Assembly: GCA_035509435.1 (NCBI GenBank) | Contig: DATJLR010000002.1 | Span: 209,677-273,676 of the forward strand | DNA from: Minisyncoccota bacterium | GTDB lineage: Bacteria > Patescibacteriota > Minisyncoccia > UBA6257 > 2-01-FULL-56-20 | Length of the DNA: 64,000 nt | Reading direction: 5' to 3' | Shown: positions 20,899 through 63,412 of the stretch, one piece after another | How positions within the stretch are numbered: the stretch's first letter is position 1 | How the letters are laid out: each line of letters starts with the position of its first letter | Program-made: the position numbers and the translations under genes | The notes under the pieces: model-generated | What the model saw: the letters and a program-made list of their open reading frames with translations, nothing else | The model's database searches: none | What the model was told of the DNA's origin: nothing

Positions 20899-20971
20899 GC
20901 CCCCATAGCTCAGTCGGTAGAGCAGCTCCCTTTTAAGGAGAGGGTCCCAGGTTCGAATCCTGGTGGGGGCA
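20899..20971 (+). tRNA. tRNA-Lys (anticodon UUU)
   Basis: Cloverleaf folded by hand: acceptor GCCCCCA/TGGGGGC, D-arm GCTC/GAGC, anticodon loop CTTTTAA, T-arm CCAGG-TTCGAAT-CCTGG, discriminator A. CCA is not encoded. Confidence 0.85.
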
Positions 20972-21004
20972 CGCCGCGCGGAAAGGTATCCATTCATATT
21001 TTCA

Positions 21005-31745: not shown

Positions 31746-31907
31746 TCAGTGTGTTTCGAACGTCTGTTTGTCTGACTCTTCCAACATTCCCATTGAAAGG
31801 GTGAAGAGCAAAAAGCCGATCGCTACCGTGACGTGAGAGTGGGAATCGATACCAGATATCAGCATAATTCCTCCGGCGAAACTAAAAATCTCCCACACGC
31901 TTTCCAT
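31746..31907 (-). CDS. small hypothetical membrane peptide (53 aa)
   Basis: MESVWEIFSFAGGIMLISGIDSHSHVTVAIGFLLFTLSMGMLEESDKQTFETH in a low-GC intergenic space. Not in the ORF track. Confidence 0.25.
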   Translation of the reverse strand: MESVWEIFSFAGGIMLISGIDSHSHVTVAIGFLLFTLSMGMLEESDKQTFETH

Positions 31908-44067: not shown

Positions 44068-46476
44068 ATGGCGGCTTTTTACATCTTTCTCGGCATCGTG
44101 GTCGGAGCAGTCGCCATTGTCGTGATATTTTTTGTCGTCCGCGCCGCGGGGCGCCGTCGCATTTTCGATTCCCTGAGGACCTCGCTTTTTTTGATAAAGG
44201 TCCCCAAAGCTGCGCCGGCGGACCAGGCAAAATCGGGAGGAGGCGAGGGGGGAGATTTCAAGACGGAGATCGCGCACTTTGAGCAGTTGCTCGGAAGCCT
44301 TACGTCGATCAAACGGCCGGTGATCTTCGAGATCGCCGTGCCGCACGTGGGAGAGGAGATCCACTTCTATATCGGTGTGCCGAAACTTTCCGCCGAGACC
44401 GCGATAAAACAGATCCAGGGATTGTGGAACGGCGCGAGCGTGGAGCTCGTCCAGGACGATTTCAACATCTTCAACCCGAACGGCGCGACCGCGGCGGCGT
44501 ACGTCGCCCAGAAGGAAAACGTCGCGTTGCCGGTGAGAACGTACGCGGAACTCGGCGTTGATACTTTTGAATCCATCGTCGGCGCGTTCGCAAAGATCAG
44601 CGAGATCGGGGAAGGCGCGTCGCTCCAGATTCTCCTGCGTCCCGCGCCGAGCGGCTACAAAAAAGAGATCAGCCATCACATCGAATCGCTCAAAAAAGGC
44701 GAGCCGATCAAAAAAGTGCTCGGGCGCGGGATCGCGTCCGGCGTGAGCGTGTCGAACGTCGCCGACGTCTTCAATCCGAAAACAAAAGAGCAGCAGGCGG
44801 AGGAGAAAAGCAATCGCGTGGTGGATGACGAGGCGGTGAAGGCGCTCCAACTGAAGATCGCAAAGCCGCTCTTTGAGGTGAACCTGCGGCTCGTGGCGTC
44901 GGCGGGATCGCCTTTTCAGGCGAACGATATTCTGGATGGCCTCACGGCCGGTTTCAGCCAATTTGGCAGCCCGATGCGCAACGAATTCCGGATCGTAAAG
45001 CCGCGGAATCCAAAGAATATCGTGAATGATTTTATTTACCGCATTTTTGACGGCGGCGAGAAGATGGTGCTCTCGGCCGAGGAGATCGCGAGCATCTACC
45101 ACCTGCCGATCTCGTCCACGGAGACGCCGCGCGTAAAGTGGCTGAAGGCAAAGGAAGCCGCGCCGCCGGAGAATCTGCCCACGAGCGGGATCCTGATCGG
45201 GGACGCGACGTTCCGCGGCACCGCGAAGCCGGTGTATATCACGGACGACGACCGGCGCCGCCACATCTACGTGATCGGACAGACCGGCACCGGTAAATCC
45301 ACGCTGCTCGGCAACATGATCATAGAGGATATCCAGTCGGGCAAGGGGGTCGCGATCATCGATCCGCACGGCGACCTTGTTGAGAACGCGCTCGGCTTCG
45401 TGCCGAAGGAGCGGCTGGATGACGTGATCTATTTCAATCCCGGCGACCTCGAGCGCCCGCTCGGCCTCAATATGATCGATTTCAATCCGGCGCGGCCGGA
45501 GGAGAAGACATTCATCGTGAACGAAATGCAGAGCATCTTCAACAAGCTGTTCTCGCAGGAAACGATGGGCCCGATGTTCGAGCAGTATATGCGCAACGCG
45601 CTGCTCCTTTTGATGGAGGATTCCGCGAACGAACCGGCCACGCTCGTGGAGGTGCCGCGCATATTCACTGACTCGCAGTACCGCACGCGCAAGCTCGCGC
45701 GCATCCATAATCCCGTCGTCATCGACTTCTGGGAAAAGGAGGCCGTCAAAGCCGGCGGCGAAGCGTCGCTCGCGAACATGACGCCGTACATCACCTCAAA
45801 GTTCAATAACTTCATTTCGAACGACTATATGCGGCCGATCATCGGCCAGCCAAAGTCCGCGTTCAACTTCCGCGAGGTGATGGACAGCAAAAAGATCCTG
45901 CTCATCAATCTTTCCAAGGGCAAGATAGGGGACATCAACGCCGGGCTTCTCGGCATGGTCTTCACCGGCAAGATCCTCATGGCCGCGCTCTCGCGCGTGG
46001 ACATCGCGGACGCCGACAAGCGCACCGACTTCAACCTATATATAGATGAGTTCCAGAACTTTACGACCGATTCCATCGCGACGATCCTCTCCGAGGCGCG
46101 CAAATACCGGCTCAACCTCACGATGGCGCACCAGTTCATCGCCCAGCTGGAGGACAAGATCAAGAACGCTGTCTTCGGCAACGTCGGCTCCGAGCTCGTG
46201 TTCCGCGTGGGTGTCCAGGACGCCGAATTCCTCGTAAAGCAGTTCGAGCCCGTGTTCAACCAGAACGATCTCGTGAACATCGACAACCTCAACGCCTATG
46301 CAAAAATTTTGATCAACGGGCAGACGTCAAAACCGTTCAACCTCAAGATCGCCACCACGTCATGGGGCGGCGGCGACAAGGCGCTTGCGGAGAAGCTCAA
46401 AGAATATTCCCGCACCAAGTACGGCCAGGACCGCCAGGTGATCGAAGACGATATCTATAGAAGGTTGAGGGCATAG
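44068..46476 (+). CDS. VirD4/TraG/TraD-like type IV coupling-protein-family ATPase
   Basis: N-terminal TM helix, Walker A GQTGTGKSTLLGN, Walker B LYIDEFQNF and the sensor-like motif EARKYRLNLTMAHQ. Confidence 0.6.
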   Translation: MAAFYIFLGIVVGAVAIVVIFFVVRAAGRRRIFDSLRTSLFLIKVPKAAPADQAKSGGGEGGDFKTEIAHFEQLLGSLTSIKRPVIFEIAVPHVGEEIHFYIGVPKLSAETAIKQIQGLWNGASVELVQDDFNIFNPNGATAAAYVAQKENVALPVRTYAELGVDTFESIVGAFAKISEIGEGASLQILLRPAPSGYKKEISHHIESLKKGEPIKKVLGRGIASGVSVSNVADVFNPKTKEQQAEEKSNRVVDDEAVKALQLKIAKPLFEVNLRLVASAGSPFQANDILDGLTAGFSQFGSPMRNEFRIVKPRNPKNIVNDFIYRIFDGGEKMVLSAEEIASIYHLPISSTETPRVKWLKAKEAAPPENLPTSGILIGDATFRGTAKPVYITDDDRRRHIYVIGQTGTGKSTLLGNMIIEDIQSGKGVAIIDPHGDLVENALGFVPKERLDDVIYFNPGDLERPLGLNMIDFNPARPEEKTFIVNEMQSIFNKLFSQETMGPMFEQYMRNALLLLMEDSANEPATLVEVPRIFTDSQYRTRKLARIHNPVVIDFWEKEAVKAGGEASLANMTPYITSKFNNFISNDYMRPIIGQPKSAFNFREVMDSKKILLINLSKGKIGDINAGLLGMVFTGKILMAALSRVDIADADKRTDFNLYIDEFQNFTTDSIATILSEARKYRLNLTMAHQFIAQLEDKIKNAVFGNVGSELVFRVGVQDAEFLVKQFEPVFNQNDLVNIDNLNAYAKILINGQTSKPFNLKIATTSWGGGDKALAEKLKEYSRTKYGQDRQVIEDDIYRRLRA

Positions 46477-50718: not shown

Positions 50719-51381
50719 ATGCCCGCAAAAAAGAAAAAATATTACGCGTACTTCGTCCCGGCGTTCGGCGCGGCCATAGCGTCCGGCGCGAAAGCGGCAA
50801 AGCCCGTGCAGGGCGTCACCGACAGCTGGGCCGTCTGCGAGAAGTTCGTGTCGGGGAAGACCGGCGCGCGGTTCAAAGCTTTTGAGAACAAAGCTGACGC
50901 CGAGGCATGGCTTTCGGGCGGGGCGATGTACGAGTCGCGCGCCACGCGGCCGCGGCCCGCGCTCGAGCGCGGCGTGTACTTCGACGCCGGCACCGGCCGC
51001 GGCGAAGGCGTGGAAATAAGTGTCACTGACGAGAAGGGAAAGAACCTGCTTCACAAGGCGATCCCGCGCGGCGAGCTGAACAAGTTCGGCAAGCATCTGC
51101 TTGGCGACGCGGCAGCCACCAACAATTATGGCGAACTGCTCGCGCTCAAGTACGCGCTCCAGGTCGCGCGCAAGGAGAAGATCGAAAAAGTGTTCGGCGA
51201 CAGCAAGCTCGTGATCGAATTCTGGTCGCAGTGGCGCATCAAGCGGAAAGATCTGCCGGAAGAGACGGTCGCACTCGCGCACGAGGTCTCGAAATTGCGT
51301 GAAACCTTCGAAGCCGCGGGCGGCACCGTGGAGCGCATCGGGGGCGACCACAATCCCGCGGACCTGGGATTTCATAAATAA
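50719..51381 (+). CDS. rnhA: ribonuclease HI with an N-terminal hybrid-binding domain
   Basis: HBD pattern KYYAYFVP…W…C…G…FK.F….A..W. RNase H core NNYGELLALKYAL. Start refined to ATG 50719. Confidence 0.75.
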   Translation: MPAKKKKYYAYFVPAFGAAIASGAKAAKPVQGVTDSWAVCEKFVSGKTGARFKAFENKADAEAWLSGGAMYESRATRPRPALERGVYFDAGTGRGEGVEISVTDEKGKNLLHKAIPRGELNKFGKHLLGDAAATNNYGELLALKYALQVARKEKIEKVFGDSKLVIEFWSQWRIKRKDLPEETVALAHEVSKLRETFEAAGGTVERIGGDHNPADLGFHK

Positions 51382-51462
51382 TAGAGAGGATTCGAATAAG
51401 GAAATACCGGTGCGCGAGGCACCGGTATGGAGTGGAGACAAAAGTGAAGCTCAAGCTTCCGG

Positions 51463-51681
51463 TCAGCGGCATTCCTTGAGGAGGTCGGTGACCTTGCACT
51501 TGAGGATCCCGGCGAACCTGATCAGGGTGTGAAGGTGGGGATCTCCCCAGCCGTCCAGATACTCGTTCAGCGTCTCTTTCGTGATCCTCAGCTTGGCGGC
51601 GAATTTCTCATCGCTTAGGCCGAGCTGGGACTTGATCATCCTGAGATTGCATCCCAGGAGGTCTTTGCGGGGTTTTCTCAT
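51463..51681 (-). CDS. XRE-family helix-turn-helix protein (73 aa from the internal Met)
   Basis: HTH LGLSDEKFAAKLRITKETLNEYLDG. Terminator-like hairpin at 51404-51428. Confidence 0.5.
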   Translation of the reverse strand: MRKPRKDLLGCNLRMIKSQLGLSDEKFAAKLRITKETLNEYLDGWGDPHLHTLIRFAGILKCKVTDLLKECR

Positions 51682-51890
51682 TACCCCTGACGTATGGGTG
51701 TGGTGTTCGCCATGGCGAACATCTTCCGATGCGGTATCTGCGTACACTTTTGTCCTCCGTGTGATGGGAAATAAAAAAGCAGACTTCATATTACAGAATC
51801 CTAGGGGGTTGTCAATCGGTCGCTTTGCCATCTCTCACAAAAGAAAGCCGGCGCTGTGGGGCGCCGGTCAGGAAAGACAGATCGTTAAAA

Positions 51891-52241
51891 TCAGGTTTGT
51901 CTTTCCACAAACCTGATCTCCGCATTCGCGCGGAAGACCTCTTCCAACGCAGTTTTCCGCTGGTCCCATTCCGCCATGCGGTTGGGGAGCTGCACCGCGC
52001 ATCCGAGCATGGCCGCGACGGCATCAAGCTTTTTAAGGTTCATTCCCTGGGTCGTTTGCCTGCCCTTCAGGAGGTGTCGGATGTTGACGTCGCTGACTCC
52101 CGAGCGGCTTACGAGCTCCGACTCGGTGATATCGAGTTTTCGCATGAGGTCCCGTAGTTTTATCGAGAGGTCCGTGCGGAGGCTCTCCAATAATGCTTCG
52201 AATTCGGTCGGCCGCATTGTCCTCGAAATAATGGATCCCAT
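51891..52241 (-). CDS. XRE-family helix-turn-helix protein
   Basis: HTH LDITESELVSRSGVSDVNIRHLLKG. The long 172-aa ORF is truncated at Met 52241 so that it does not overlap rnpB. Terminator on the minus strand at 51831-51866. Confidence 0.5.
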   Translation of the reverse strand: MGSIISRTMRPTEFEALLESLRTDLSIKLRDLMRKLDITESELVSRSGVSDVNIRHLLKGRQTTQGMNLKKLDAVAAMLGCAVQLPNRMAEWDQRKTALEEVFRANAEIRFVERQT

Positions 52242-52305
52242 AAAATCCTCTCTGCGTGGTGATGGAGTGAATATGCCGCACTGAATTATAGTAGCTTCCA
52301 CAAAG

Positions 52306-52334
52306 TTGTCAAGAAAATCGGCGCATGCTATAAT
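52306..52334 (+). promoter_or_regulatory. sigma70-like promoter for rnpB (TTGTCA-N17-TATAAT)
   Basis: The hexamers end about 6 nt before the P1 stem. Confidence 0.5.
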
Positions 52335-52340
52335 ATTTTT

Positions 52341-52771
52341 GCTGGTCATCCAGACGGTCGCTGTGCGATGTTCCTTGAACGGACGCCGCGCAGAGGAAAA
52401 TCCGGACACTCTCTTTGCTGCAACGCGTTCACGCGCGGCGTGGCGAAGACAAGAAGGTAGCGGCTAACAGCCGCCGTTCGCAAGAATAGAGGTGCGAGCA
52501 GTGACGCCTCCGGGCGAAAGCCCGTTCAAAGCCGGAAACGGCTGAGGGGACCCGATCCCGAGCTAGATGGTCCAATTCCGCCATAGGGACAAAAAAGCGG
52601 AAGTGAAACGGCAAAATCCTTACCGAGCGCAAGGCCGTGCTCTCTGTCGATCCGCAAGGATCCCGGAGAGAGTGCCGCACGAGCCCGCGAGCGATCAAGG
52701 GCCCAGATGAATGACCGTCCGCCGCGCTTCACCGCGCGGCCGACAGAATCCGGTTTATGGATCGCCAGCAC
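52341..52771 (+). ncRNA. rnpB: RNase P RNA (bacterial type A)
   Basis: 5' P1 GCTGGTCATCCAGACGGTCGC resembles E. coli GAAGCUGACCAGACAGUCGCC. It has the GAGGAAAATCCGGAC P4 element (GGAAAGUCCGGGC-like). The 3' region CCAGATGAATGACCGTCC…GACAGAATCCGGTTTATGG matches AGAUGAAUGACUGUCC…ACAGAACCCGGCUUAUCGG. The 3' end pairs back to P1. A weak terminator lies at 52776-52805. Confidence 0.85.
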
Positions 52772-53311
52772 AGGGACAGCTTCAGCAATGAGGCTGTTTT
52801 TGTTTGACGATATACGAGCCTGGTTCTGCTTTTCACCGATGCAGATTCCAAACTGCGGGCTAGGGCACAGGCGATAATCTGTGGCGCAGGCTTTGCGTCA
52901 TTTCTTATTGCCTTCCTGATCCGTTCGATCTGGAATGTTGGCGATGTCCGTTCAGGGTTCAGCTTATTTTTGTGGTTATGTTTCCTGTTGTTCTTCGTGT
53001 CTGGCGTGAGGAAGTGGAGGCATGTTGATGACGTCTGGGCCGGGACGGGAGGCGGCGCTGAGGTTTGACGTCGACCGTGTCACAGCAGGCAGCTTTCGCA
53101 CCACGCGAGGCTGCCTGTTTTCTTTTCTCAGCGATTGAAATTTTTATATCTATTCATAAGATTAAATTATGACATTGAGCCATATCAGCTTCTTTAGCCC
53201 CAGCAACCTCTATCGAAGAAGGGGCTAGTTAGCGGGCGTTTCGAAACTACCACAACCTCTTCTTCGGAAGAGGTGTTTTGTCTTCCGATTACAGCACTTT
53301 GGAGGTGGAGG

Positions 53312-53527
53312 ATGGAAACGTTCACAACGATTAAAAGGAAAATAGAATCGATTGAACGTAAAATACGCAAACTTGACCAAGAAAAGGAAACTTTGAAGCT
53401 TAGCCTGCAAGAAGCATGCAGCCATCCCAAGCGTTACCGGAGTCACAGGGGGTCAGGTTGTGAGATGTGTGACAAATGTGAAAAAATACTCAAATGGTGG
53501 CCAGCGTCCTTTCGCAACCCCATTTAA
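53312..53527 (+). CDS. small coiled-coil / Cys4 zinc-ribbon protein (71 aa)
   Basis: GGAGGTGGAGG SD, then METFTTIKRKIESIERKIRKL…C…CEMCDKC. Lies in a roughly 38% GC segment. Confidence 0.45.
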   Translation: METFTTIKRKIESIERKIRKLDQEKETLKLSLQEACSHPKRYRSHRGSGCEMCDKCEKILKWWPASFRNPI

Positions 53528-53681
53528 TGTCTATGCGGTATTAGGGCGCACCAGCAACAACGGTGCGCTCTTTCTCTATATCGCCATAAATCTTCTTTGA
53601 TTGATCGCTTGCGCGATCGTCGACTTTTGCAAAAGCAGATGCAATTTGATATGGTAGGGGCAGTCACGTGGAGGTGAACGG

Positions 53682-53840
53682 GATGGTAAAATGTTTGAAC
53701 AGCACTTGCAATAAAGAGGCGATTCCGGGGCTGACCGTTTGCAGCGCAACGTGTTTGATGGCCGCCCTGCATCAGGGACTCATTGTTGAGCCACGAAAGA
53801 TAGAGGATGAGCAGAAACGGCAGATCGACAATCCACGGTA
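53682..53840 (+). CDS. small Cys-rich zinc-ribbon protein (52 aa)
   Basis: GGAGG SD, then MVKCLNSTC…CSATC. Not in the ORF track. Confidence 0.35.
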
Positions 53841-53871
53841 ACGCATACACATTTTTGACCACGGAGGCGTT

Positions 53872-54069
53872 ATGAAGTTTGTTCATTACAAATCTAACGC
53901 CATCGTGGACGGCATAGCGTTAGAGGCAGGTGATGTTTTGCGTGCAACCGACGTGTATGATTCCACAAGCGGAAAATGGAGTCCGATCCCGCCCGCGCTC
54001 GTGGGCACGGCCATCGTGAAAGAAGCTGCCGCAGTGTTCGTCCGCCCGAGCGCCGAAGGTTCAAACTAA
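53872..54069 (+). CDS. small hypothetical protein (65 aa)
   Basis: GGAGG SD, followed directly by the tandem-hairpin terminator. Confidence 0.45.
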   Translation: MKFVHYKSNAIVDGIALEAGDVLRATDVYDSTSGKWSPIPPALVGTAIVKEAAAVFVRPSAEGSN

Positions 54070-54070
54070 T

Positions 54071-54129
54071 GCCGTGATGGTGTCATCACGGCCAGCAGTT
54101 CTCGTTACGCGAGAACTGCTTTTCTTTTT
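54071..54129 (+). terminator. tandem-hairpin intrinsic terminator
   Basis: GCCGTGATGG-TG-TCATCACGGC, then CAGCAGTTCTCG-TTACG-CGAGAACTGCT followed by TTTCTTTTT. Confidence 0.7.
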
Positions 54130-54177
54130 GCATAAAACGATGGGTAATATTATCCGGCGACAGACGTATATCTCTGC

Positions 54178-54537
54178 ATGGATGCATATAATTCGCCGAC
54201 CACAAAGCCGCTCTTCCGGGCCACGCAGGTGATCTGGTATCTGTGCGATCTATTGGAGGTCATCCTTGCGTTCCGTTTCTTCCTCCGCTTTGCGGGCGCA
54301 AATCCGGACGCCGGATTCACCAGTTTTATCTACGCGATCAGCTGGCCGTTCGTCGCGCCGTTCTTTGCCGTGTTCCGGACGACCGTCGTTGCGGGCAGTG
54401 TCGTGGAATGGACGACGCTCCTTGCAATGCTCGTGTACGCGCTCATCGTGTGGGGGATAGTGCGCTTGCTCCTCATGAGCAAGACCGTGTCAACGCCGGA
54501 GGCGGCCGCCAAGCTGGAACAGCAGGAAAAGGAATAG
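54178..54537 (+). CDS. YggT-family membrane protein
   Basis: YggT signature …FRFFLRFAGANPDAGFTSFIYAISWPFVAPFFAVFR…. Confidence 0.75.
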   Translation: MDAYNSPTTKPLFRATQVIWYLCDLLEVILAFRFFLRFAGANPDAGFTSFIYAISWPFVAPFFAVFRTTVVAGSVVEWTTLLAMLVYALIVWGIVRLLLMSKTVSTPEAAAKLEQQEKE

Positions 54538-54590
54538 CGCCCAGCAATAAAAATCGCCCGCAAGGCGGTTTTTTGTGTTATCCTATACCT

Positions 54591-54860
54591 ATGGAGATCG
54601 TCCTATTGCTGGCCCACCTTCTCTCCGCCTTCGGGAGCATGGCCTATGCCACGTATCTTTTCTTTTTCCCATCCCGCAAGGGGATCCGCATGGCATATTC
54701 GGGGGTGGGGCTTACGATCGGGACCGGAATATGGCTGATATTTGCGTCAAGAGTCCCTATCGGCACGGTGTGCATAACCGGACTGCTGTATTTGGGCTAT
54801 GTCTCCACAGCCCTTGTAATATCTAGCAAAAAGCTTGCTTTGGTCCGCGCCAGGCAGTAA
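54591..54860 (+). CDS. small hypothetical membrane protein (89 aa)
   Basis: Three hydrophobic helices. A weak terminator follows at 54846-54878. Confidence 0.45.
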   Translation: MEIVLLLAHLLSAFGSMAYATYLFFFPSRKGIRMAYSGVGLTIGTGIWLIFASRVPIGTVCITGLLYLGYVSTALVISSKKLALVRARQ

Positions 54861-54879
54861 AAACTGCCCGTTTTTATCC

Positions 54880-55567
54880 CCAGTTTTCGCCACCTTTTCC
54901 ACACGTTATAAACTTTGCAGGGGATTTTACGCTGTTTTTTCGCTTGACGATGTTTTTACATGGGCTATTCTTGATAATAGCGAAAGCAACAAGTTAAACA
55001 TCGTTGGATCACCAGAAGGTCCGGTCGGGTTCTCTCCGAAGAGAACAAGATCAAGCGGGAATAGATCCGCAGGACAGAATGGGATGCTCGCCGTTTACGG
55101 ATGAGCAAAACAAACTGATCTGTGATCGAAACCGGGACTTCTGGTTCCCAAGAAAGAAAAGGAATGCGTTTACGGCGAAAGCTAAGAGCGCAGGAAGAGG
55201 CGAGCCCGGTTCCCGGGCAAAGAGTTTCCTGACGGCAACGTTAGGGGCTCCGCGGAGGTTTTTCGCAAAGATGATGCGTCCTTCGGGCGTAGCATGACTG
55301 GCGGGAATGACCTGTCTTTTCACTTCTGTTTTCCGGGGGTTTGTGGACCCGGAAATGATGGCGGCTGAAAGGTCGTCGTTTGGGATGAAAATCCTGCTGA
55401 AAGTCCTTTTCCAACGATGTCCACTACGAGAGTGGAACCTGTCAACGATCGATGCCTGCCTCTTGGATGCTGCGCATGCGGCGAAATGGGGTACCATCGG
55501 GAGATAGATCTTCCACTCTCACACACCGCCGGGGGCTGCTGAATTCGCGCAGCCCCCGATTTATTTT
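54880..55567 (+). other. about 0.7-kb ORF-poor GC-rich structured region ending in a strong terminator; candidate ncRNA
   Basis: No credible ORF; all frames are short or of biased composition. A long-range helix pairs CACCAGAAGGTCCGG (about 55010) with CCGGGACTTCTGG (about 55135). There are local hairpins (GTTCTCT-CCGAAG-AGAGAAC) and a repeated CGTTTACGG motif. Terminator GGGGGCTGC-TGAATTCGC-GCAGCCCCC followed by a T-tract at 55530-55567. Confidence 0.35.
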
Positions 55568-55616
55568 TTTATAATCATATTCGTCTTCATTTGCATTTCA
55601 TGAACTTTTCATTATT

Positions 55617-57674
55617 GTGAAGGGTACCATGGAAGCAGTCATCCCATCCGGTCGGCCGGCATATCAAAAATTTCTCGTCACATTCCTTTTATATTTCGCG
55701 ACCGGCGTCGGCGCGGAATATCTTTTTTATTCATTGCACACGGGACCGACGGTGCTCTGGCTGCCGGCCGGGATCGCGCTCGCGCTCATCGTGATATGGG
55801 GATATTGGCAATGGATCCCGATCGCGCTTGCGCAATTGTTCGTGCTCATCGCAAATCCGGCGCGGCCCGACGCTTTGTTCATTGCGGTGAACATCGTCGC
55901 GTATACGGGCCAGGCCCTCTTTGGCGGATATGTCCTTAAAAAATTGAAGTTCGACGGCGCGATCGTGCATCTTCGGGATGTGATCGTGCTGTTATGCGCG
56001 GGCGCCGTGACGACGGCGATCGCCCCCACCGTCCTTATCTGGGCTTCGGTATTGTTGTACGCGCATCCGTTCTCGTTCTGGACGAGCTGGAGCCGGATAT
56101 GGGTGGGCGGCCTTATGGGAACGCTCATCATCACGCCGCTCATCACGTCGTGGTACTACAGCGCACGCGAGGATTTTGTCGGCCTTGACTGGAAGCGATG
56201 GGGCGAGGCGGCCGTCGCCATGGTCGCCGTCGGCGTCACTACCTATTTTCTTTTTTGGACGACCGTGCTGGGCGACTATGGATTTGTCATGATCTATGTC
56301 CTGTTCGGGATCCTGTTTCTGGTGGGGTTCCGTTTCCGCCCGCGCGTCCTTCTTGTGGCGCTTTCTCTCTCTGCGGCATTCGGGATCACGGGAACGTTCG
56401 TTTTGCACGCGGGAGCCGCAACGCTCGGAACCCAGTTCTTCTCCGACGAACTTTTCTATATCCTCATTGCGCCGATATTCCTTATCATGGGGGTCCTCGT
56501 GGCCGAGCGCCAGCTTATCATCTTCCAGCTCGAGCAGGAGAAGCGCGGGCTCGCGGCGGCCATGGACCGGCTTTCCGAGCAGGACCGTTCCAAAAACGAG
56601 TTCATCAGCGTGTTCGCGCATGAACTGCGCAATCCGCTCGCGCCCGTCGTGAGCACACTTGAATATCTGCGGCTCAATGAAAAAGATCCGGAGAACATGA
56701 AGGTGGTGGAAGTGGCGGACCAGCAGGTGCGCATCGTGCGGCGGCTCCTGGATGACCTGCTCGATGTTTCGCGCATCAACCAGCGGAAGCTCAATTTGCA
56801 AAAAGAGACGGTTGCGCTCAGTCCGATCATCCAATCAGCCGTTGCCGCGGTACGGCCATTCTATGGTTCCCGTGGGCACTCCTTCTGGTTCTCGCTTCCG
56901 GATGACGAAGTGTATGTGAACGCGGATCCGGCGCGGATGACGCAGGCGCTCATGAACCTCCTTTTCAACGCCGGAAAATATACGCCGCCGGGCGGCATGA
57001 TCGAGCTTGTCTGCCGGCGCGAGGATGATGCGGTGTCGATCGTCGTGAAGGACAACGGCGCCGGCATTTCTCCGGACGCCATGCCGCTCATCTTTGAGCC
57101 GTTCCAGCAGGCATCGCGCGAAGCGGCAATGGGAAGCGGCCTTGGCCTGGGGCTTTTTATCACGCGGCAGCTGGTGGAGATGCATGGCGGAACGATCGCA
57201 GCGGCAAGCGCGGGGATCAACAAGGGAGCGGAATTCGTGCTCCGTTTTCCTGCGTTGCAGCGCGCGCCGGCAACGCTCGGCGTCCGTGCCGCGACCGCTT
57301 TCGGCGCGCCGGGCCGCTCGCTCGACATCCTTATCGTCGATGACAATATCGCCGGGGCGCAGGCGTTGCAAAAATTGCTTGTGCTGCGCGGCCACTCGGT
57401 ACGCATTGCCCTCGGCGCGGATGACGCACTGATGGCGATCGGCGATGCGGTCCCTGACATGGTCCTTTTGGACATCGGCTTGCCGGGAATGAACGGCTAT
57501 GACCTTGCGCGGGAGATGCGGAAGCGCGCCGCCAGGATCCGCATCGTTGCGCTTACCGGATACGGACAGGAAGAGGACCGGCGCGAAGCGGAGCGCGCGG
57601 GATTCGACCATCATCTTACGAAGCCGATCGGCCTTGCGGACCTTGAGCGCGTGTTCGTTGCGGTCGCGCGGTAG
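55617..57674 (+). CDS. hybrid sensor histidine kinase / response regulator with an N-terminal MASE1-like membrane domain
   Basis: About 8 TM helices. H-box HELRNPLAPV. HATPase GSGLGLGLFITRQLVEMHGG. C-terminal receiver ILIVDDN…DMVLLDIGLPGMNG. Own TATAAT promoter after the upstream terminator. Confidence 0.85.
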   Translation: MKGTMEAVIPSGRPAYQKFLVTFLLYFATGVGAEYLFYSLHTGPTVLWLPAGIALALIVIWGYWQWIPIALAQLFVLIANPARPDALFIAVNIVAYTGQALFGGYVLKKLKFDGAIVHLRDVIVLLCAGAVTTAIAPTVLIWASVLLYAHPFSFWTSWSRIWVGGLMGTLIITPLITSWYYSAREDFVGLDWKRWGEAAVAMVAVGVTTYFLFWTTVLGDYGFVMIYVLFGILFLVGFRFRPRVLLVALSLSAAFGITGTFVLHAGAATLGTQFFSDELFYILIAPIFLIMGVLVAERQLIIFQLEQEKRGLAAAMDRLSEQDRSKNEFISVFAHELRNPLAPVVSTLEYLRLNEKDPENMKVVEVADQQVRIVRRLLDDLLDVSRINQRKLNLQKETVALSPIIQSAVAAVRPFYGSRGHSFWFSLPDDEVYVNADPARMTQALMNLLFNAGKYTPPGGMIELVCRREDDAVSIVVKDNGAGISPDAMPLIFEPFQQASREAAMGSGLGLGLFITRQLVEMHGGTIAAASAGINKGAEFVLRFPALQRAPATLGVRAATAFGAPGRSLDILIVDDNIAGAQALQKLLVLRGHSVRIALGADDALMAIGDAVPDMVLLDIGLPGMNGYDLAREMRKRAARIRIVALTGYGQEEDRREAERAGFDHHLTKPIGLADLERVFVAVAR

Positions 57675-57711
57675 CGGGAAGCGCCTGCGGGACGCGTGAT
57701 ATAATTTTTCT

Positions 57712-58998
57712 ATGCGCGCACCAGGCCCTTTCCGGCAGAGGAAGGGTTTTACCCTTATTGAACTCCTCGTGGTCATCGCGATCATCGCCATTCTGGCGGT
57801 CGTCGTTGTTTTGACATTGAACCCGTCGGAGCTTTTGAAGCAGTCGCGGGATTCCAACCGCATCTCCGACATGGCAACGCTCAGTTCCGCGCTCAGCCTG
57901 TATTCCACGGACCAGTCCGGAGGGTCGGGGTTTTCCATGGGTACGCCGGGCTGGGTTTATGTTTCCATTCCTGATCCGCAGGCGACCTCCACGGCGGGAG
58001 ACCAGTGCCAAGGGCTCGGCCTGCCGACGCTTCCTGCGGGATACGCCTATCATTGCGCCGCGTCGTCCACCGTCCGGAGCGTCACGAACGCCGGATGGGT
58101 TCCGGTGAATTTCGCGGCGATCTCGTCTGGGGCGCCGCTCAGCTCGCTGCCGTTGGATCCGGTGAACGCTTCGTCCTCGCGCCTTTATTACACGTACGAA
58201 ACGAACGGCACGCAGTATGAAGTGACGGCAGTGATGGAGTCGCAGAAATACAAAGCGGGAGGAAGCGGCGATGTGATCACGCCTGACGGCGGACGGCTCG
58301 CCTCGGTATACGAAAAGGGGACCGCGCTCGGCCTTGAGCCGCTCGATTACGGCGACGCCTCGCTTGTCGGGTTCTGGCCGATGGATGAAGGATCCGGCAC
58401 GGTCGCGTACGACGACTCCGGCAGCAATGCGACCGGCACATGGAACGGCGGACAGGTGGGAACGGCAAGCGGCTATTACAGCGCGGGGAAAATCGGATCA
58501 TATGCCGGCGCCTTCGACGGGTCGAGCACCTATCTTGCGAACACCGGGAACAATCCGGCGCTTGTGCTCACGAACGCCATGACGCTCGTTGCGTGGGTGA
58601 AGGTGAACGCGTCGGGCACGGACATGAAGGTGATCTCCAAGAGGCCGTCGTACGTGCTTACCGTCTTCAGCAATAACATTCCGGAGACGGAGATATTCAT
58701 CGGAGGCACTTCAAAAGACACGCGCAGCGCAAGCGGCGGCACGACGCTCGTGAACGGCGTATGGTACCAGCTCGCGGGCACATATAACGGCAGTACGCTT
58801 ACTACGTACGTGAACGGCGTGCTTGACCGCCAGATCTCCGTAAGCGGCACGATGGACAGCACGGCGTACGTCCTTGACCTTGGGAAGACCGCCGACGGCA
58901 CGAATGCCAATTTCAACGGCCTTATTGATGACGCGCGGGTGTATAACCGGGCCCTGTCCGCCGCGGAAATAGCGGCGCTCTATAACGGCGGCAAGTAA
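57712..58998 (+). CDS. type IV pilin-like protein with a C-terminal LamG/ConA-like domain (paralog of 8374-9648)
   Basis: GFTLIELLVVIAIIAILAVVVVLTLNP prepilin motif and the LamG C-terminus (…DDARVYNRALSAAEIAALYNGGK). Confidence 0.8.
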   Translation: MRAPGPFRQRKGFTLIELLVVIAIIAILAVVVVLTLNPSELLKQSRDSNRISDMATLSSALSLYSTDQSGGSGFSMGTPGWVYVSIPDPQATSTAGDQCQGLGLPTLPAGYAYHCAASSTVRSVTNAGWVPVNFAAISSGAPLSSLPLDPVNASSSRLYYTYETNGTQYEVTAVMESQKYKAGGSGDVITPDGGRLASVYEKGTALGLEPLDYGDASLVGFWPMDEGSGTVAYDDSGSNATGTWNGGQVGTASGYYSAGKIGSYAGAFDGSSTYLANTGNNPALVLTNAMTLVAWVKVNASGTDMKVISKRPSYVLTVFSNNIPETEIFIGGTSKDTRSASGGTTLVNGVWYQLAGTYNGSTLTTYVNGVLDRQISVSGTMDSTAYVLDLGKTADGTNANFNGLIDDARVYNRALSAAEIAALYNGGK

Positions 58999-59074
58999 GG
59001 AGGGCGGCCGGTAAAATGTAAGAAAGTGGTATAATGAAAGAAAGGCCGAAAAACCTCAATCCATCATTACCACC

Positions 59075-59221
59075 ATGTGGAAACAATGGGTGAACGTATT
59101 GCTGGGGTTGCTCGTCATCGTGCTTGCCTATTCCTCGGGCGGCACAATGTGGTCCGCCATTGCGGGCTTGGTCGTGGCGATCCTCGCGTTGTGGTCGGCG
59201 CTCGAGAAGAAAAAAATGTAG
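59075..59221 (+). CDS. small membrane protein (48 aa, 2 TM)
   Basis: MWKQWVNVLLGLLVIVLAYSSGGTMWSAIAGLVVAILALWSALEKKKM, followed by a strong terminator at 59238-59277 (GCAAAGACCCCGC…GCGGGGTCTTTGC followed by a T-tract). Confidence 0.45.
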   Translation: MWKQWVNVLLGLLVIVLAYSSGGTMWSAIAGLVVAILALWSALEKKKM

Positions 59222-59319
59222 ACCGTTTTCTTCGGGCAGCAAAGACCCCGCCTTCGCGCGGGGTCTTTGCTTTTTATCGGCGCGCGCCGGATGGTGTTGG
59301 CGGTGGTACTATATATGCG

Positions 59320-60444
59320 ATGCGCATCATCGGACATCTTGATATGGACGCTTTCTTTGCCTCCGTGGAGGAGCGGGACAATCCGCGCCTTGCGGGGCGC
59401 CCAATCGTCGTCGGCGCCGATCCGGAAGGCGGCCGCGGGCGCGGCGTCGTCTCCACCGCCAACTACGCCGCGCGCGCGTACGGGATCCGTTCGGCGCTGC
59501 CGATCAGCACGGCGTGGCGCTACTCCGAAGCGGCGCGGGCGAAAGGGCTGCCGGCTGCCGTATTCATGGATGTGAATGTGGAAAAATACGCGGCGGAGTC
59601 GCGGCGCGTGATGGCGATCGTGCGTGCCCACATACAAGGCGAGATCGAGCAGGCGAGCGTGGATGAAGCGTACATCGATCTTTCGTTCGCCGGTTCGTAC
59701 GCGCGCGCGGAGAAGGTCGCGCGCGAAATAAAAGATGAAATAAAGATAAAAGAACACTTGACGGCGTCGATGGGCATCGGGCCGAACAAGCTCATCGCGA
59801 AGATCGCGAGCGACCGGCAGAAGCCGGACGGCCTTACGGTGGTGCGCGAAGAGGATGCGGAACAATTCCTTGAGCCGCTCACGTTGCGGACCATCCCGGG
59901 CGTTGGGCCGAAGAGCGAGCAGCAGTTCGCCAAGCGTGGCATACGCACGGTGCGCGACGCGAAGCGTCTTACCCGCGCCGAGCTCACCGACATGATGGGC
60001 AAGTGGGGCGCGGAGCTGTACGAAAAGCTGCGCGGGCGCGGCGATGCGGAGCTTGTCTCCGAATGGGTGCAGAAATCCATAAGCGAGCAGACGACGTTCG
60101 ACGATGATATTCCGGTGGACGGCCAGCTGAAGCATCGGAAGCGGCTCGAGGCGGCGCTCGGCGCGCTCGCGGAGGACGTCCACGCAAATCTGCTTGCCGA
60201 GATCGCCGCAGGCGCGCCGTTCACCTCGTTCAAGAGCGTGGGCATCACCGTGCGCTTCGCCGACTTCACCACGAAGACGCGCGTTGTCACGCTCAAGGCG
60301 CCGGTGGCGGCCGCCGACGTTACAGCGCCGGCGGTCATCAAATTCCAGGCGCTGCGGCTTTTTATGCCGTTTCTCGACCGGCGCGAGAATCCCGCGCACA
60401 AGGCGATCCGGCTGTTGGGCGTTAAGGTGGAGCGATTTGAATAA
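59320..60444 (+). CDS. dinB: DNA polymerase IV (Y-family)
   Basis: MRIIGHLDMDAFFASVEERDNPRL…. Start refined to ATG 59320; the upstream part of the track ORF is intergenic. Confidence 0.9.
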   Translation: MRIIGHLDMDAFFASVEERDNPRLAGRPIVVGADPEGGRGRGVVSTANYAARAYGIRSALPISTAWRYSEAARAKGLPAAVFMDVNVEKYAAESRRVMAIVRAHIQGEIEQASVDEAYIDLSFAGSYARAEKVAREIKDEIKIKEHLTASMGIGPNKLIAKIASDRQKPDGLTVVREEDAEQFLEPLTLRTIPGVGPKSEQQFAKRGIRTVRDAKRLTRAELTDMMGKWGAELYEKLRGRGDAELVSEWVQKSISEQTTFDDDIPVDGQLKHRKRLEAALGALAEDVHANLLAEIAAGAPFTSFKSVGITVRFADFTTKTRVVTLKAPVAAADVTAPAVIKFQALRLFMPFLDRRENPAHKAIRLLGVKVERFE

Positions 60445-60520
60445 CGTGGAACACTTTCATCCGGAAAACGTATTTTATTATGGTACGTCCCACAGCTATC
60501 GATCTTTACGAGGAGGGTTA

Positions 60521-60754
60521 ATGGAGGATGTGAGCATTCAGCACCTTGGCCTGGAGGGTTGCGGCTGGTATATAAAGAGAAAAACCGCAGACATCCAGAA
60601 GCCCGATTATCTTCACAGCGACGGAGTATGGCGCAAAACCACATACCAGCTTGTTGACGGCAAAAAGATCTTCACCGGATATTTTTCCACGGAAGAAGAA
60701 GCGCGGTCTGCATGTGATGGCGAGGTTTCTACCGGACTTCCTATCGCCGCGTGA
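60521..60754 (+). CDS. small AP2-like DNA-binding domain protein (77 aa)
   Basis: AGGAGGG SD. The stretch GWYIKRKTADIQK…DGKKIFTGYFSTEEEARSACD resembles the AP2 core (GKW.A.I….GKR..LG.F.T.EEAARAYD). Terminator at 60785-60813. Confidence 0.45.
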   Translation: MEDVSIQHLGLEGCGWYIKRKTADIQKPDYLHSDGVWRKTTYQLVDGKKIFTGYFSTEEEARSACDGEVSTGLPIAA

Positions 60755-60835
60755 TCCCGGTTTTTGTTTCACAACCCAAGCCCAAAGCCCGGCACAACCC
60801 GCCGGGCTTTTTCGTAATCTGGTAAACTTATATGA

Positions 60836-63352
60836 ATGGCAGACCAACCGTCGCTCGCCGCGCTCGCGGGCAAGAATATCAATGATGTGTTTGCGTCGCT
60901 CAAGACATCCGCAAAAGGGCTCTCGCCCACGGAGGCGACCGCGCGGCTTAAAGAGTACGGCCCGAACGAGTTTGCGGGAAAGAAAAAGCTCCAGCCGGTT
61001 TTGATATTCTTCTCCAAGTTCCGGAGCCCGCTCCTGCTCCTGCTCATCGTCGCCGCGATCATCTCCGGGATCCTCGGCTCGCGCATCGAGGCGACGATCA
61101 TTCTCGCAATCGTGATCGGCAGCGCGTTCATCGATTTTTTCAATACATACAAGTCAGCGCAGGCAGCGGAGGAGCTCCAGGAAAAGGTGACGATCACCGC
61201 GGGGGTCATGCGCGGTGGCGAGCTCAAAGAGCGCAATATGCGCGAGGTGGTGCCCGGCGATGTGTTCGCGCTTGAGGCGGGCGACCTCGTGCCGGCGGAT
61301 GCGATCCTTTTCGAAGCGAAAGATCTGTTCGTGAATGAAGGCGTCCTGACGGGGGAATCGTTGCCGGTGGAGAAAGCGGCGGATGGCACAAGCGCGGCGG
61401 CGAAAGGCACCACGAACACCGTGCTCCTCGGCACCAGCGTCGTTTCAGGAAAGGGCATGGCGGTCGCGGTGGCGACCGGCGCGCGCACGAGCGTGGGGAA
61501 CATCGCCGATAAGCTAAAGAAGCCCGACGCGCCGACGGAGTTCGAAAAGAACCTGAGCGACTTCAGCTCCTTCATCTATCGGACCACGCTCGCGCTCGTG
61601 CTCGTCGTGCTCCTGCTCAATATTTTCATCATCCACCGCGACTGGTTCCAGGTGATAATATTCGCCGTCGCGATCGCGGTCGGCCTCACGCCGGAACTGT
61701 TGCCGCTTATTGTCACGAGCAATCTGGCTAAGGGCGCGATCGAAATGTCCAAGAACGGCGTGATCGTAAAGAAGCTCGCCGCGATCCACAATTTTGGGAG
61801 TGTCGACGTGCTTTGCACCGACAAGACCGGCACGCTTACGGAAGACCGCATCACGCTCATCAAGTGCGTGGATGCCACCGGGAAGGATAGTGAAGAGACG
61901 AACCTGTGGGGCTATCTGAGCAGCAAGAACTTGACCGGCGTGCGCGGCGTGCTCGACGAGGCGATAGAGCGCTTCAAAAAGATCGACATCGCAGGCTGGG
62001 AAAAAGTGGACGAAGTCCCGTTCGACGCGGAGCGCAAACTGGAATCGGTGATCGTGCACAAGGGAAAACAGACGGTTCTGATCGCAAAAGGCGCGCCGGA
62101 AGAGATAGTAAAACTTTCTAAACATACCGCCGCGCTCCGTACGAAGATCACGAAAGAGTACGAGGCGCTCTCGGCGGACGGCTTCCGTGTGCTCGCGCTC
62201 GGCGTAAAGGGTGTGCCGCTCCGCAAGACGGCATCGTACGACAAGCGCGACGAGGCGGGCATCTCGTTCGTGGGATTTCTCGCGTTCCTCGATCCGCCGA
62301 AGCGCACCGCAAAGGACACGCTCGCCAAGATGGCGGCGCACAATGTGGCGGTCAAGATCATCACGGGGGACAATTATCTCGTCACAAAAAAGATCATGGA
62401 CGAGATCGGGGTACCGATCGTCGGGTGGTATAACGGCGACGCGATCGCCGCCATGCACGAGCACGAGTTCAAGAAAAAAGTGGAGACCGCGAACGTCTTC
62501 ACGCGCGTCACGCCCGAGCAGAAAGAGATGATCATCCGATTGTTGCGCGAGAACGGCCACGTCGTGGCGTACATGGGCGACGGCGTGAACGACGTGCTCT
62601 CCATCAAAGAGGCGGATGTCGGCATCTCGGTGAACAACGCGGTGGACATCGCAAAGGAAACGGCGGACATCATTCTATTGCGCAAAGGCCTCGGCGAGAT
62701 CATTGACGGCATCGTGGAGGGCCGCAAGACGTTCGCCAACACGTTCAAATATCTGATGATGGCGCTCTCGTCCAACTTCGGCAACATGTTCAGCATGCCG
62801 ATCGCGTCCATCTTCCTGCCGTTCCTCCCCATGACCGCGCCGCAGATCCTGCTCAACAATTTCCTCTACGATTCGTCGCAGCTTGCGATCCCGTTCGACA
62901 AGGTTGACGACGATTTCCTCGCGCGACCCAAGAAATTTAACATCGTTCTCATGAAAAAGTTCATGTATATATTCGGGCCGCTTTCGTCGCTCTTTGACTT
63001 CGCCACGTTCGGCGTTTTGCTCTTTGTATTGCACGTGAACGGCACCGCGTTCCAGACCGGCTGGTTCCTGGAATCCATCGCCACGCAGACGCTCGTCGTG
63101 AACATCATCCGGAGCAAGTTCAATTTTTGGGCGAACGGGGGACCGAGCCGGGCGCTCGTCGGCGCCACCGTGAGCGCGGTCATCGTCGGATGGGGCATCA
63201 CGTACTCCTTCCTCGCGCCCGCCTTCGGCTTCGCAAAGTTCGGCTGGTATCCGGTTGCGCTCATCCTTGTGATCGTCGTTGCATACCTCGCACTCGTGGA
63301 GTTCGCAAAGAAGTATTTTTACAAAAAATACGAGTATCTGATAGAGAAATAA
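60836..63352 (+). CDS. mgtA: magnesium-translocating P-type ATPase
   Basis: P-type motifs DKTGTLT, TGES and GDGVNDV; MgtA-like N-terminus and 838 aa. Confidence 0.85.
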   Translation: MADQPSLAALAGKNINDVFASLKTSAKGLSPTEATARLKEYGPNEFAGKKKLQPVLIFFSKFRSPLLLLLIVAAIISGILGSRIEATIILAIVIGSAFIDFFNTYKSAQAAEELQEKVTITAGVMRGGELKERNMREVVPGDVFALEAGDLVPADAILFEAKDLFVNEGVLTGESLPVEKAADGTSAAAKGTTNTVLLGTSVVSGKGMAVAVATGARTSVGNIADKLKKPDAPTEFEKNLSDFSSFIYRTTLALVLVVLLLNIFIIHRDWFQVIIFAVAIAVGLTPELLPLIVTSNLAKGAIEMSKNGVIVKKLAAIHNFGSVDVLCTDKTGTLTEDRITLIKCVDATGKDSEETNLWGYLSSKNLTGVRGVLDEAIERFKKIDIAGWEKVDEVPFDAERKLESVIVHKGKQTVLIAKGAPEEIVKLSKHTAALRTKITKEYEALSADGFRVLALGVKGVPLRKTASYDKRDEAGISFVGFLAFLDPPKRTAKDTLAKMAAHNVAVKIITGDNYLVTKKIMDEIGVPIVGWYNGDAIAAMHEHEFKKKVETANVFTRVTPEQKEMIIRLLRENGHVVAYMGDGVNDVLSIKEADVGISVNNAVDIAKETADIILLRKGLGEIIDGIVEGRKTFANTFKYLMMALSSNFGNMFSMPIASIFLPFLPMTAPQILLNNFLYDSSQLAIPFDKVDDDFLARPKKFNIVLMKKFMYIFGPLSSLFDFATFGVLLFVLHVNGTAFQTGWFLESIATQTLVVNIIRSKFNFWANGGPSRALVGATVSAVIVGWGITYSFLAPAFGFAKFGWYPVALILVIVVAYLALVEFAKKYFYKKYEYLIEK

Positions 63353-63412
63353 AACAGGATTGCTTCGCCTCCAGGCAGATGACCGTTCGACGAAGCAATC
63401 CTGTTTTATTTC
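63351..63412. terminator. bidirectional intrinsic terminator
   Basis: AAAACAGGATTGCTTCG…CGAAGCAATCCTGTTTTATTT. Confidence 0.7.

Follow-up and report, generated by a model that had tools for sequence, protein, structure and literature searches.

Small genes with strong Shine-Dalgarno sites at the rnpB edge of a variable chromosomal segment in a Minisyncoccota bacterium

The window analyzed here, a whole stretch of 64 kb from contig DATJLR010000002.1 of a Minisyncoccota bacterium, carries several small open reading frames (ORFs) on either side of rnpB, the gene for RNase P RNA. Downstream of rnpB lie three mini-genes, named m1 (71 amino acids, aa), m2 (52 aa) and m3 (65 aa), and upstream of it lie two genes for helix-turn-helix proteins, named HTH1 and HTH2. 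An earlier note had read these genes as one module derived from a phage or plasmid. Altogether, our results suggest that the locus probably joins three histories instead, namely those of rnpB, of HTH genes resident beside it, and of mini-genes that were acquired, or are young, within a plasticity hotspot. For comparison, 36 related loci were collected by way of an RNase H-like protein (encoded at 50722-51381); all are from metagenome-assembled genomes (MAGs) of Patescibacteria/Parcubacteria (Paceibacterota, Minisyncoccia, Liptonbacteria and similar). Loci are referred to by number (L001 and so on) where they need to be told apart; L037, a Logan contig, is ~84% identical to the window across 59022-63354.

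The composition of the DNA directly downstream of rnpB is atypical. Positions 52773-54129 have a GC content of 49.3%, within the lowest 0.8% of 1357-nucleotide (nt) windows (window mean 57.5%), with the lowest sub-blocks at 41.7-44%; the figure of about 38% over about 1.4 kb given in the earlier note was thus too low, the minimum being ~42-44%. The near-perfect Shine-Dalgarno (SD) elements that the same note had placed before the 71-, 52- and 65-aa ORFs were confirmed as perfect GGAGG motifs, 6, 8 and 4 nt ahead of the ATG of m1, m2 and m3, respectively. GGAGG-N4-9-ATG occurs at 11 sites on both strands of the window (128 kb of strand), three of which are those of the mini-genes, located within 560 nt on one strand and each in front of an ORF with 52 codons or more. 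Elsewhere, a 53-aa hydrophobic ORF in an intergenic gap (31746-31907, minus strand) also has GGAGG 6 nt ahead of its ATG.

Long host ORFs are initiated differently, with GGAGG present in 1 of 51 and a 4-mer SD in 2 of 51. A TATAAT-like -10 box was located 4-10 nt before the ATG in 20 of these 51 ORFs, compared with 3.3% of all ATGs, a sign that leaderless transcripts are widespread in the host; examples of SD-free or leaderless starts are 1775, 2590, 7704, 9652 (minus strand), 14929, 31947, 33637, 42137 (minus), 46720 (minus) and 57712. A literature search on leaderless translation in Patescibacteria returned nothing directly relevant. Additionally, the GC content at third codon positions (GC3) is 0.46 for m1, 0.58 for m2 and 0.59 for m3, against 0.73-0.78 in neighboring host genes. 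GGAGG sites combined with low GC3, in a host that is poor in SD sites and rich in GC3, make the mini-genes look acquired or young. The signals of the three mini-gene units are real and atypical for this genome.

All three mini-genes lie on the plus strand in compact units. m1 (53312-53527) is preceded by a promoter-like site (53135-53162) and a leader of ~140 nt, extending to 53311, which contains a terminator-like hairpin with a T-run (53255-53280) and the GGAGG (53301-53305); a hairpin with a T-rich tail follows the gene (53544-53576). A structured, riboswitch-like RNA in this leader was considered and rejected, its fold z-score of -1.6 not being significant, and because of this score a regulatory RNA or attenuator there would be putative. 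The second unit begins with a weak promoter-like sequence, TTGCAA-17-TATGGT (53627-53655, 8 of 12 consensus positions), followed by the m2 SD (53670-53674), m2 (53683-53841), a spacing of 30 nt with the m3 SD (53863-53867), m3 (53872-54069), and two tandem hairpins (54071-54092 and 54094-54120) with a T-run that terminate the unit (54071-54129). The single terminator assigned to all three genes in the earlier note therefore holds for m2 and m3 and fails for m1, which has its own hairpin. This arrangement suggests that m1 is a separate transcription unit and that m2 and m3 form a two-gene operon.

Between rnpB and m1, an open frame (52878-53122, plus strand) that lacks a canonical start ahead of 52970 and translates into a hydrophobic sequence is probably a decayed small membrane ORF. 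It is closed by a hairpin terminator of ~40 nt (53082-53122, ACAGCAGGCAGC...GCTGCCTGTTTTC) that occurs once in the window and is 81-87% identical to copies at 290-328 and 879-920 of L037, each of which follows a small membrane ORF, and at 14443-14485 of L004. Terminators of this type recur behind differing small membrane ORFs in related genomes, and the hairpin may serve as a portable terminator carried along with small-gene cassettes.

Homologues were detected for m3. The identical protein is held at NCBI as hypothetical protein VMA75_02175 of a Candidatus Paceibacterota MAG, and L037 carries a homologue that is 74% identical, with GGAGG and start conserved, and that differs from m3 with a ratio of nonsynonymous to synonymous substitution (dN/dS) of 0.165 at a dS of 0.91. 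Upstream of the L037 homologue lie different small membrane ORFs and downstream of it different genes, and neither m1 nor m2 is present. Judged by this pattern of substitution, m3 is a real gene under purifying selection.

A full HMMER search of 1.84 billion representatives yielded 120 matches to the m3 family at E<=1e-3, mostly 59-100 aa in length and aligned end to end. The core motif is G-D-x-L-x3-DVYDSTSGKW...VRP, within the family consensus HxHP.sg..i.G.rL..GD.l...DVYDSTsGkWe..P...vG....iwVRP. In an alignment of 45 members, G14 and W36 are invariant and G20, D27, G34, G45, R58 and P59 nearly so, and m3 itself scores 90.6 bits (E 1.2e-26) against the profile of these 45 members. AlphaFold2, supplied with the 45 family sequences, predicted five strands for m3 with a mean predicted local distance difference test score (pLDDT) of 91.8 and a predicted template modeling score (pTM) of 0.75. 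The family had no match in Pfam, PHROGs or NCBIfam other than a sub-threshold one to Kelch_1, and none in PADLOC or the PDB. The Kelch repeat is the nearest sequence resemblance, in that L-x-x-x-DVYD-x-x-x-x-kW-x-x-(i/l)-P in m3 recalls the central strands of a Kelch blade, and weak matches to Kelch proteins of the PDB recurred. Kelch membership was rejected, as these matches were weak and became weaker still with the family profile; m3 neither reaches the gathering score of the profile nor has several tandem blades.

Degenerate DNA patterns were used to find metagenomic relatives of m3, which gave 24 loci with strong family members (E<1e-10) and one IMG/VR contig. The genomic contexts of these relatives are heterogeneous. 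Some lie beside housekeeping genes (L27, L9, S9, IF3, BipA, methionine aminopeptidase) and a few beside mobile-element or defence-like genes (C5 methylase, GmrSD, DDE transposase), and no Pfam family recurred among the 66 flanking ORFs. A general Cys-rich partner or fusion was considered and set aside, there being few cases and no general pattern. All ten family members that were looked up are unnamed metagenome proteins. As to variation within the family (P0003, P0005, P0008, P0014, P0059, P0030, P0064, P0067, P0097, P0100, L094 and L096), tandem two-domain members exist, a subfamily has a conserved C-terminal extension of ~70-80 aa (...LS.e.k.LL..L...YWLIP...W D.R...HPE.l.eLvdfGyL...), and a few members have Cys-rich tails. 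The family that m3 represents is widespread and undescribed, and consists of stand-alone beta proteins, most of them 60-75 aa in length.

For m1 and m2, searches of a 5.8-billion-protein index, IMG/VR, the GenBank phages and 101 fetched loci, and for m1 also of the JGI metagenomes, yielded no homologue, and an exact look-up of contigs encoding m1 or m3 gave no match. The two C-x2-C...C-x2-C signatures of the earlier note were not found as such. m1 has an N-terminal coiled-coil-like helix followed by C36-x-H38...C50-x2-C53-x2-C56, and m2 reads C4-x4-C9...C20-x3-C24. In size (52-71 aa) and in having four or five Cys/His ligands in two clusters, these proteins are like small zinc-ribbon or treble-clef mini-proteins such as YacG and FCS; unlike these, their spacing is not the canonical CxxC...CxxC, and neither two CxxC knuckles nor a profile match places them in the zinc ribbon, FCS or YacG families. 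A YacG/FCS-type finger was rejected for m2 specifically, since BLASTP against E. coli YacG gave an E-value of 1.8. A sequence search of the PDB returned coiled-coil noise for m1 and nothing for m2. m1 and m2 are lineage-specific ORFans, whose reality is argued from the pattern of SD, ATG, open frame and terminator.

The mini-genes are located at one edge of a segment that varies between relatives. By comparison with those relatives, this segment extends for 8.1 kb (52773-60835) from rnpB to a core P-type ATPase gene (60836-63352), whose orthologue follows rnpB in related genomes. The orthologous ATPase begins 43-75 nt after rnpB in L006, L009, L011, L012 and L024; in other loci the two genes are 2.0 kb (L005), 3.5 kb (L013), 5.3 kb (L010), 6.4 kb (L004) and 8.5 kb (L007) apart, with cargo that is unrelated from genome to genome. 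Besides the mini-genes, the segment of the window holds a YggT-like gene (54178-54537), an 89-aa membrane ORF, a candidate large non-coding RNA, a MASE1 hybrid histidine kinase, a pilin-like LamG protein, DinB and a 79-aa ORF; tblastn of m1, m2, m3, the YggT-like gene and the 89-aa ORF against the 36 syntenic loci gave no match. The corresponding intervals hold CHAP and GGDEF proteins in L004, and a zincin and a methyltransferase of the CMAS family (cyclopropane synthase-like) in L005. Defence-like cargo was observed in two others, as a 1064-aa nSTAND3 NTPase in L007 (12088-15282) and as a Schlafen/AlbA_2 protein with two uncharacterized neighbors in L010 (11520-14415). On the evidence of gene order, the interval from rnpB to the ATPase gene is a chromosomal plasticity hotspot, with the mini-genes at its rnpB edge.

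This interval resembles the known integration or plasticity hotspots flanked by core genes, such as defence islands and islands at tRNA, tmRNA (transfer-messenger RNA) or further stable RNA genes, in its conserved flanks (rnpB with the RNase H-like gene at one end, the ATPase gene at the other), in a length that ranges from 43 nt to 8.5 kb, in its unrelated and partly defence-like cargo and in its atypical composition. It is unlike them in having no integrase, no attachment-site (att) duplication of the 3' end of the RNA gene and no recognizable mobile-element genes, and in that the cargo here is mostly tiny ORFs with promoters and terminators of their own. A literature search on rnpB-linked islands found nothing directly relevant. 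Accessory genes in a hotspot flanked by core genes are of a known kind, and the m3 mini-protein family is what is undescribed.

The RNase P RNA that the earlier note had placed upstream of the mini-genes was corroborated. In an E-value scan of 51300-55700, the sequence at 52342-52772 (plus strand) matched Rfam RF00010 over model positions 1-367 of 367 with 68.5 bits and E 7.3e-20, and both conserved P4 strands align (GAGGAAAgUCCGG ... ACAGAAcCCGGCUUA), as in class-A RNase P RNA. At the default gathering threshold no RNase P was reported in the window by Rfam, because 68.5 bits falls under the gathering cut-off of 100 bits; the low score is due to large insertions. The RNase P RNA of L002 (12063-12481) scores similarly low, at 76.9 bits, and default annotation pipelines would overlook the RNase P RNAs of this clade for the same reason. 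Homologues of rnpB were found by nhmmer in 25 related loci, in every one downstream of the RNase H-like gene at a distance of 61 to 4066 nt. A terminator hairpin with a T-run follows the gene (52776-52805). This rnpB genuinely encodes a class-A RNase P RNA, a divergent one with insertions, and has its own consensus extended -10 promoter.

Two adjacent small XRE-family genes do occupy the minus strand upstream of rnpB, both with Pfam matches above the gathering cut-offs, as the earlier note had it. HTH1 (51463-51681) encodes a 72-aa XRE/Cro-C1-type protein that matches HTH_3 (E 8.5e-6, 26.2 bits, cut-off 23); its start is the Met of MRKPRK rather than the start of a longer ORF of 122 aa, inside which a promoter-like site is located (51815 to 51788, minus strand). 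HTH2 (51891-52241) encodes a 116-aa XRE-type protein with a C-terminal extension that matches HTH_26 (E 3.7e-6, 27.5 bits, cut-off 22), and is followed by a terminator-like hairpin (51867 to 51848, minus strand). In L001-L005, L007 and L010, the RNase H-like gene is separated from rnpB by a gap that contains one or two small minus-strand HTH genes, with short ones at the position of HTH1 in L002, L003, L005, L007 and L010. XRE families of Pfam were matched at E<=0.01 by 6 of 11 aligned HTH proteins (the relatives' counterparts together with the two of the window). A hidden Markov model of the rnpB-proximal HTH proteins of L001-L004 picked up HTH2 with E 1.5e-6 among 6,831 ORFs, in a match that spans the C-terminal motif ttTLEELf..g...F. 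By these comparisons, HTH2 is a fast-evolving positional orthologue of the rnpB-proximal HTH genes in L001-L004.

HTH2 and rnpB are separated by a back-to-back promoter pair (52285-52334, both strands) with a common palindromic -35 (TTGTCAA / TTGACAA), from which HTH2 would be transcribed divergently from rnpB. The minus-strand promoter on the HTH2 side, TTGACA-16-TATAAT, agrees with the consensus at 12 of 12 positions, and the plus-strand promoter on the rnpB side, TTGTCA-17-(TG)TATAAT, at 11 of 12. Upstream of rnpB, both the TTGTCAA -35 and TGCTATAAT show conservation; the window and L002-L005 keep TTGTCAA-N17-TGCTAtAAT with CTGG after it, L001 has a variant -35 (TATGTCAAT), and plausible minus-strand -10 boxes were seen by eye beyond the palindromic -35 in relatives. 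The earlier note's assignment of the HTH genes to one module with the mini-genes is contradicted by the HTH2 orthologues in L001-L004 and by the bidirectional promoter kept in L001-L005. Judging from synteny, both HTH genes have long resided between rnpB and the RNase H-like gene in this Paceibacterota sub-clade, outside the mini-gene module. Their family membership suggests that HTH1 and HTH2 are most likely small autoregulatory repressors. They are like other XRE / Cro-C1 regulators (HTH_3, HTH_26, HTH_31) in being small, stand-alone and probably autoregulatory, and HTH2 is unlike them in its clade-specific C-terminal motif, in its fixed divergent position relative to rnpB across the common -35, and in that no partner toxin, phage or defence gene adjoins it.

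As regards the mini-genes, they are most likely real translated genes that were acquired or are evolutionarily young. The view that foreign or accessory DNA is parked here beside a stable RNA gene is a fair description, in light of the low GC3, the strong SD sites and the variation of the segment between relatives. Rather than through site-specific integration, the mini-genes may have entered the hotspot by recombination. Being too small for enzymes and having no conserved partner, the mini-proteins are taken to be non-enzymatic binding proteins of an accessory nature, with m1 and m2 probably stabilized by zinc.

Several points weigh against this interpretation. The term acquired draws on composition and synteny, with no donor identified, and low GC3 with strong SD sites could also mark young or de novo genes. 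The hotspot pattern can also reflect repeated deletion in the relatives with short gaps. The window holds no rRNA genes, so that the 16S anti-SD lies outside it. GC across the codon positions of m1 is 0.42/0.42/0.46, which is no codon-position signal. m1 and m2 are without any homologue, and the protein collection that includes m3 contains neither of their sequences, from which it appears that gene callers skipped both. Finally, no zinc-ribbon or zinc-finger profile matched m1 or m2 (Pfam at E<=1, NCBIfam, PHROGs), and that their Cys/His clusters probably bind zinc is a reading of Cys spacing.

Amongst the alternatives, the one that survives best holds that only m3 is a gene and that m1 and m2 are chance ORFs in a spacer, possibly one that encodes small RNAs or regulatory leaders. 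The lack of homologues in every collection searched, the absence of m1 and m2 from the protein index and the flat GC across m1 codon positions would all fit this explanation, as would the weak m2 promoter (8 of 12) and the promoter-like site and terminator-like hairpin upstream of m1, which could bound a small RNA of ~110 nt. Nevertheless, we consider it unlikely, as m1 and m2 have a perfect GGAGG 6 or 8 nt from their ATG, a signal seen only 11 times in 128 kb of strand; a 71-codon open frame at 43% GC has a probability of ~0.015 by our estimate from base composition; a hairpin with a T-rich tail closes each unit; and the small ORFs of the equivalent L037 patch also have GGAGG-type sites.

A further alternative, close to that of the earlier note, is that the HTH genes and mini-genes are what is left of a phage or plasmid module (for lysogeny control, anti-defence or toxin-antitoxin functions) that had integrated with rnpB as its target. 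Low GC and GC3, strong and atypical SD sites and the position beside a stable RNA gene in a variable interval are all compatible with such an origin. Additionally, HTH1 has weak matches to phage repressor models (RstR, E 0.002; phrog_2328, E 1.4e-4), relatives carry defence-like cargo in their hotspot (the nSTAND3 NTPase of L007, the Schlafen/AlbA_2 protein of L010), one contig, the only one in IMG/VR to do so, contains an m3 relative, and some metagenomic m3 relatives stand beside a C5 methylase, GmrSD, DUF2130, DDE transposase or DnaB-like gene.

The hallmarks of phage or element integration beside a stable RNA were, however, absent. A Pfam scan of the ORFs at 40-64 kb detected no integrase, recombinase or transposase, and a search for att-like direct repeats in 51300-56000, which leaves the far end at ~60.8 kb unscanned, gave only chance-level repeats of 14-20 nt, none of them with the rnpB 3' end. 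Profile searches of the mini-proteins and searches for homologous modules in phages and plasmids had both been proposed in the earlier note. In the former, m1-m3 had no match in Pfam, NCBIfam, PHROG or PADLOC; in the latter, tblastn of m1, m2, m3 and the m3-family consensus against 50,697 GenBank phages gave nothing convincing (best E 0.08 and 0.09), and m3, the query used for plasmids, had no match among 72,556 of them. Hence neither phage nor plasmid cargo was recognized, and the derivation from a phage or plasmid module was not borne out. PADLOC assigned m1-m3 to no defence system and returned only generic HTH matches for HTH1 and HTH2 (HTH_VI, 2.7e-5; capH, 0.018). The HTH genes are also conserved across rnpB from the mini-genes in relatives that have no mini-genes, and the closest genome, L037, has m3 without m1 or m2.

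A toxin-antitoxin origin fares similarly. m2 and m3 do resemble a Type II toxin-antitoxin operon in being small adjacent genes that share one terminator in an accessory region. Unlike such operons, neither has a recognizable DNA-binding antitoxin domain, no toxin or antitoxin family was matched, and two-gene pairing is not conserved, given that the L037 homologue occurs without m2; the stand-alone m3 relatives, with no recurrent partner or neighbor, speak against a pair and make a two-gene toxin-antitoxin system unlikely. Altogether, nothing supports a phage, toxin-antitoxin or anti-defence origin of the mini-genes, nor did any test favor a role in lysogeny control, and we regard the module explanation as quite improbable.

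It is very doubtful that HTH2 is a dedicated regulator of rnpB transcription that acts at the shared promoter and links the expression of RNase P RNA with its own, for which speak the overlap of the two -35 hexamers in 5 of 6 nt, the near-consensus quality of both promoters and the retention of the palindromic TTGTCAA with a divergent HTH gene in the nearest relatives, and against which speak the argument's dependence on synteny, the lack of any operator repeat beyond the promoter elements and the more distant relatives L006, L011, L012, L027 and L028, which carry rnpB with no HTH gene in the gap. Autoregulation without any link to a neighboring gene is common among XRE proteins, and we know of no dedicated protein regulator of rnpB that has been described. 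A broader version, in which the HTH2-family protein is a dedicated transcription factor that sets RNase P RNA levels in these bacteria with reduced genomes, or gates expression from the hotspot, and m2-m3 is a two-part mini-protein system, is likewise highly improbable; under it, m2 and m3 would be a zinc-finger partner and a new beta fold, a type of system that builds up in conflict hotspots. The preferred interpretation remains that of three histories joined at one locus.

Other features of the window were observed alongside the locus. Within the variable segment, a candidate large structured non-coding RNA of ~620-660 nt was found at 54866-55600 (plus strand), with counterparts at 4065-4836 of L037 and 14915-15690 of L002. 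Its promoter region (54866-54978; TTGACG-16-TATTCT) is highly conserved, at 91% identity to that of L037 and 80% to that of L002, and a terminator closes the candidate. The three genomes gave fold z-scores of -5.1, -6.1 and -8.6. In a consensus structure of 120 pairs, derived from these same three sequences, the only ones available, 83.8% of cells are paired, compared with 74.5% in shuffles (none of 500 as high), and 45 pairs are altered on both sides, compared with 4-15 in slid controls. No Rfam match at E<=1, no tmRNA and no conserved ORF was found for it in the three genomes.

About 6 kb upstream of the locus, the window encodes an 802-aa VirD4/TraG-like type IV coupling protein (44068-46476, plus strand; T4SS-DNA_transf, TrwB, TraG-D_C). 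ARAGORN labeled the sequence at 20899-20972 (plus strand) as tRNA-Stop with anticodon tta. A UAA-suppressor tRNA, and with it an altered genetic code, was rejected, as the canonical register (stem 27-31/39-43, loop C-U-UUU-A-A) gives the anticodon UUU (Lys), with which the Rfam alignment agrees; the label is probably an artefact.

The locus changes no major open question. If the interpretation is correct, it would nevertheless describe a plasticity hotspot in Paceibacterota, with rnpB and a core P-type ATPase gene as anchors, whose accessory genes, defence-like ones among them, turn over without recognizable integrases, and this interval would provide a handle on gene flow in bacteria of the candidate phyla radiation (CPR). 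The m3 family, with a confidently predicted fold that has no analogue among solved structures, would be a candidate for structural and functional work on microproteins. Additionally, the difference between leaderless, SD-free host genes and SD-led mini-genes would offer a flag for recently acquired genes in such genomes.

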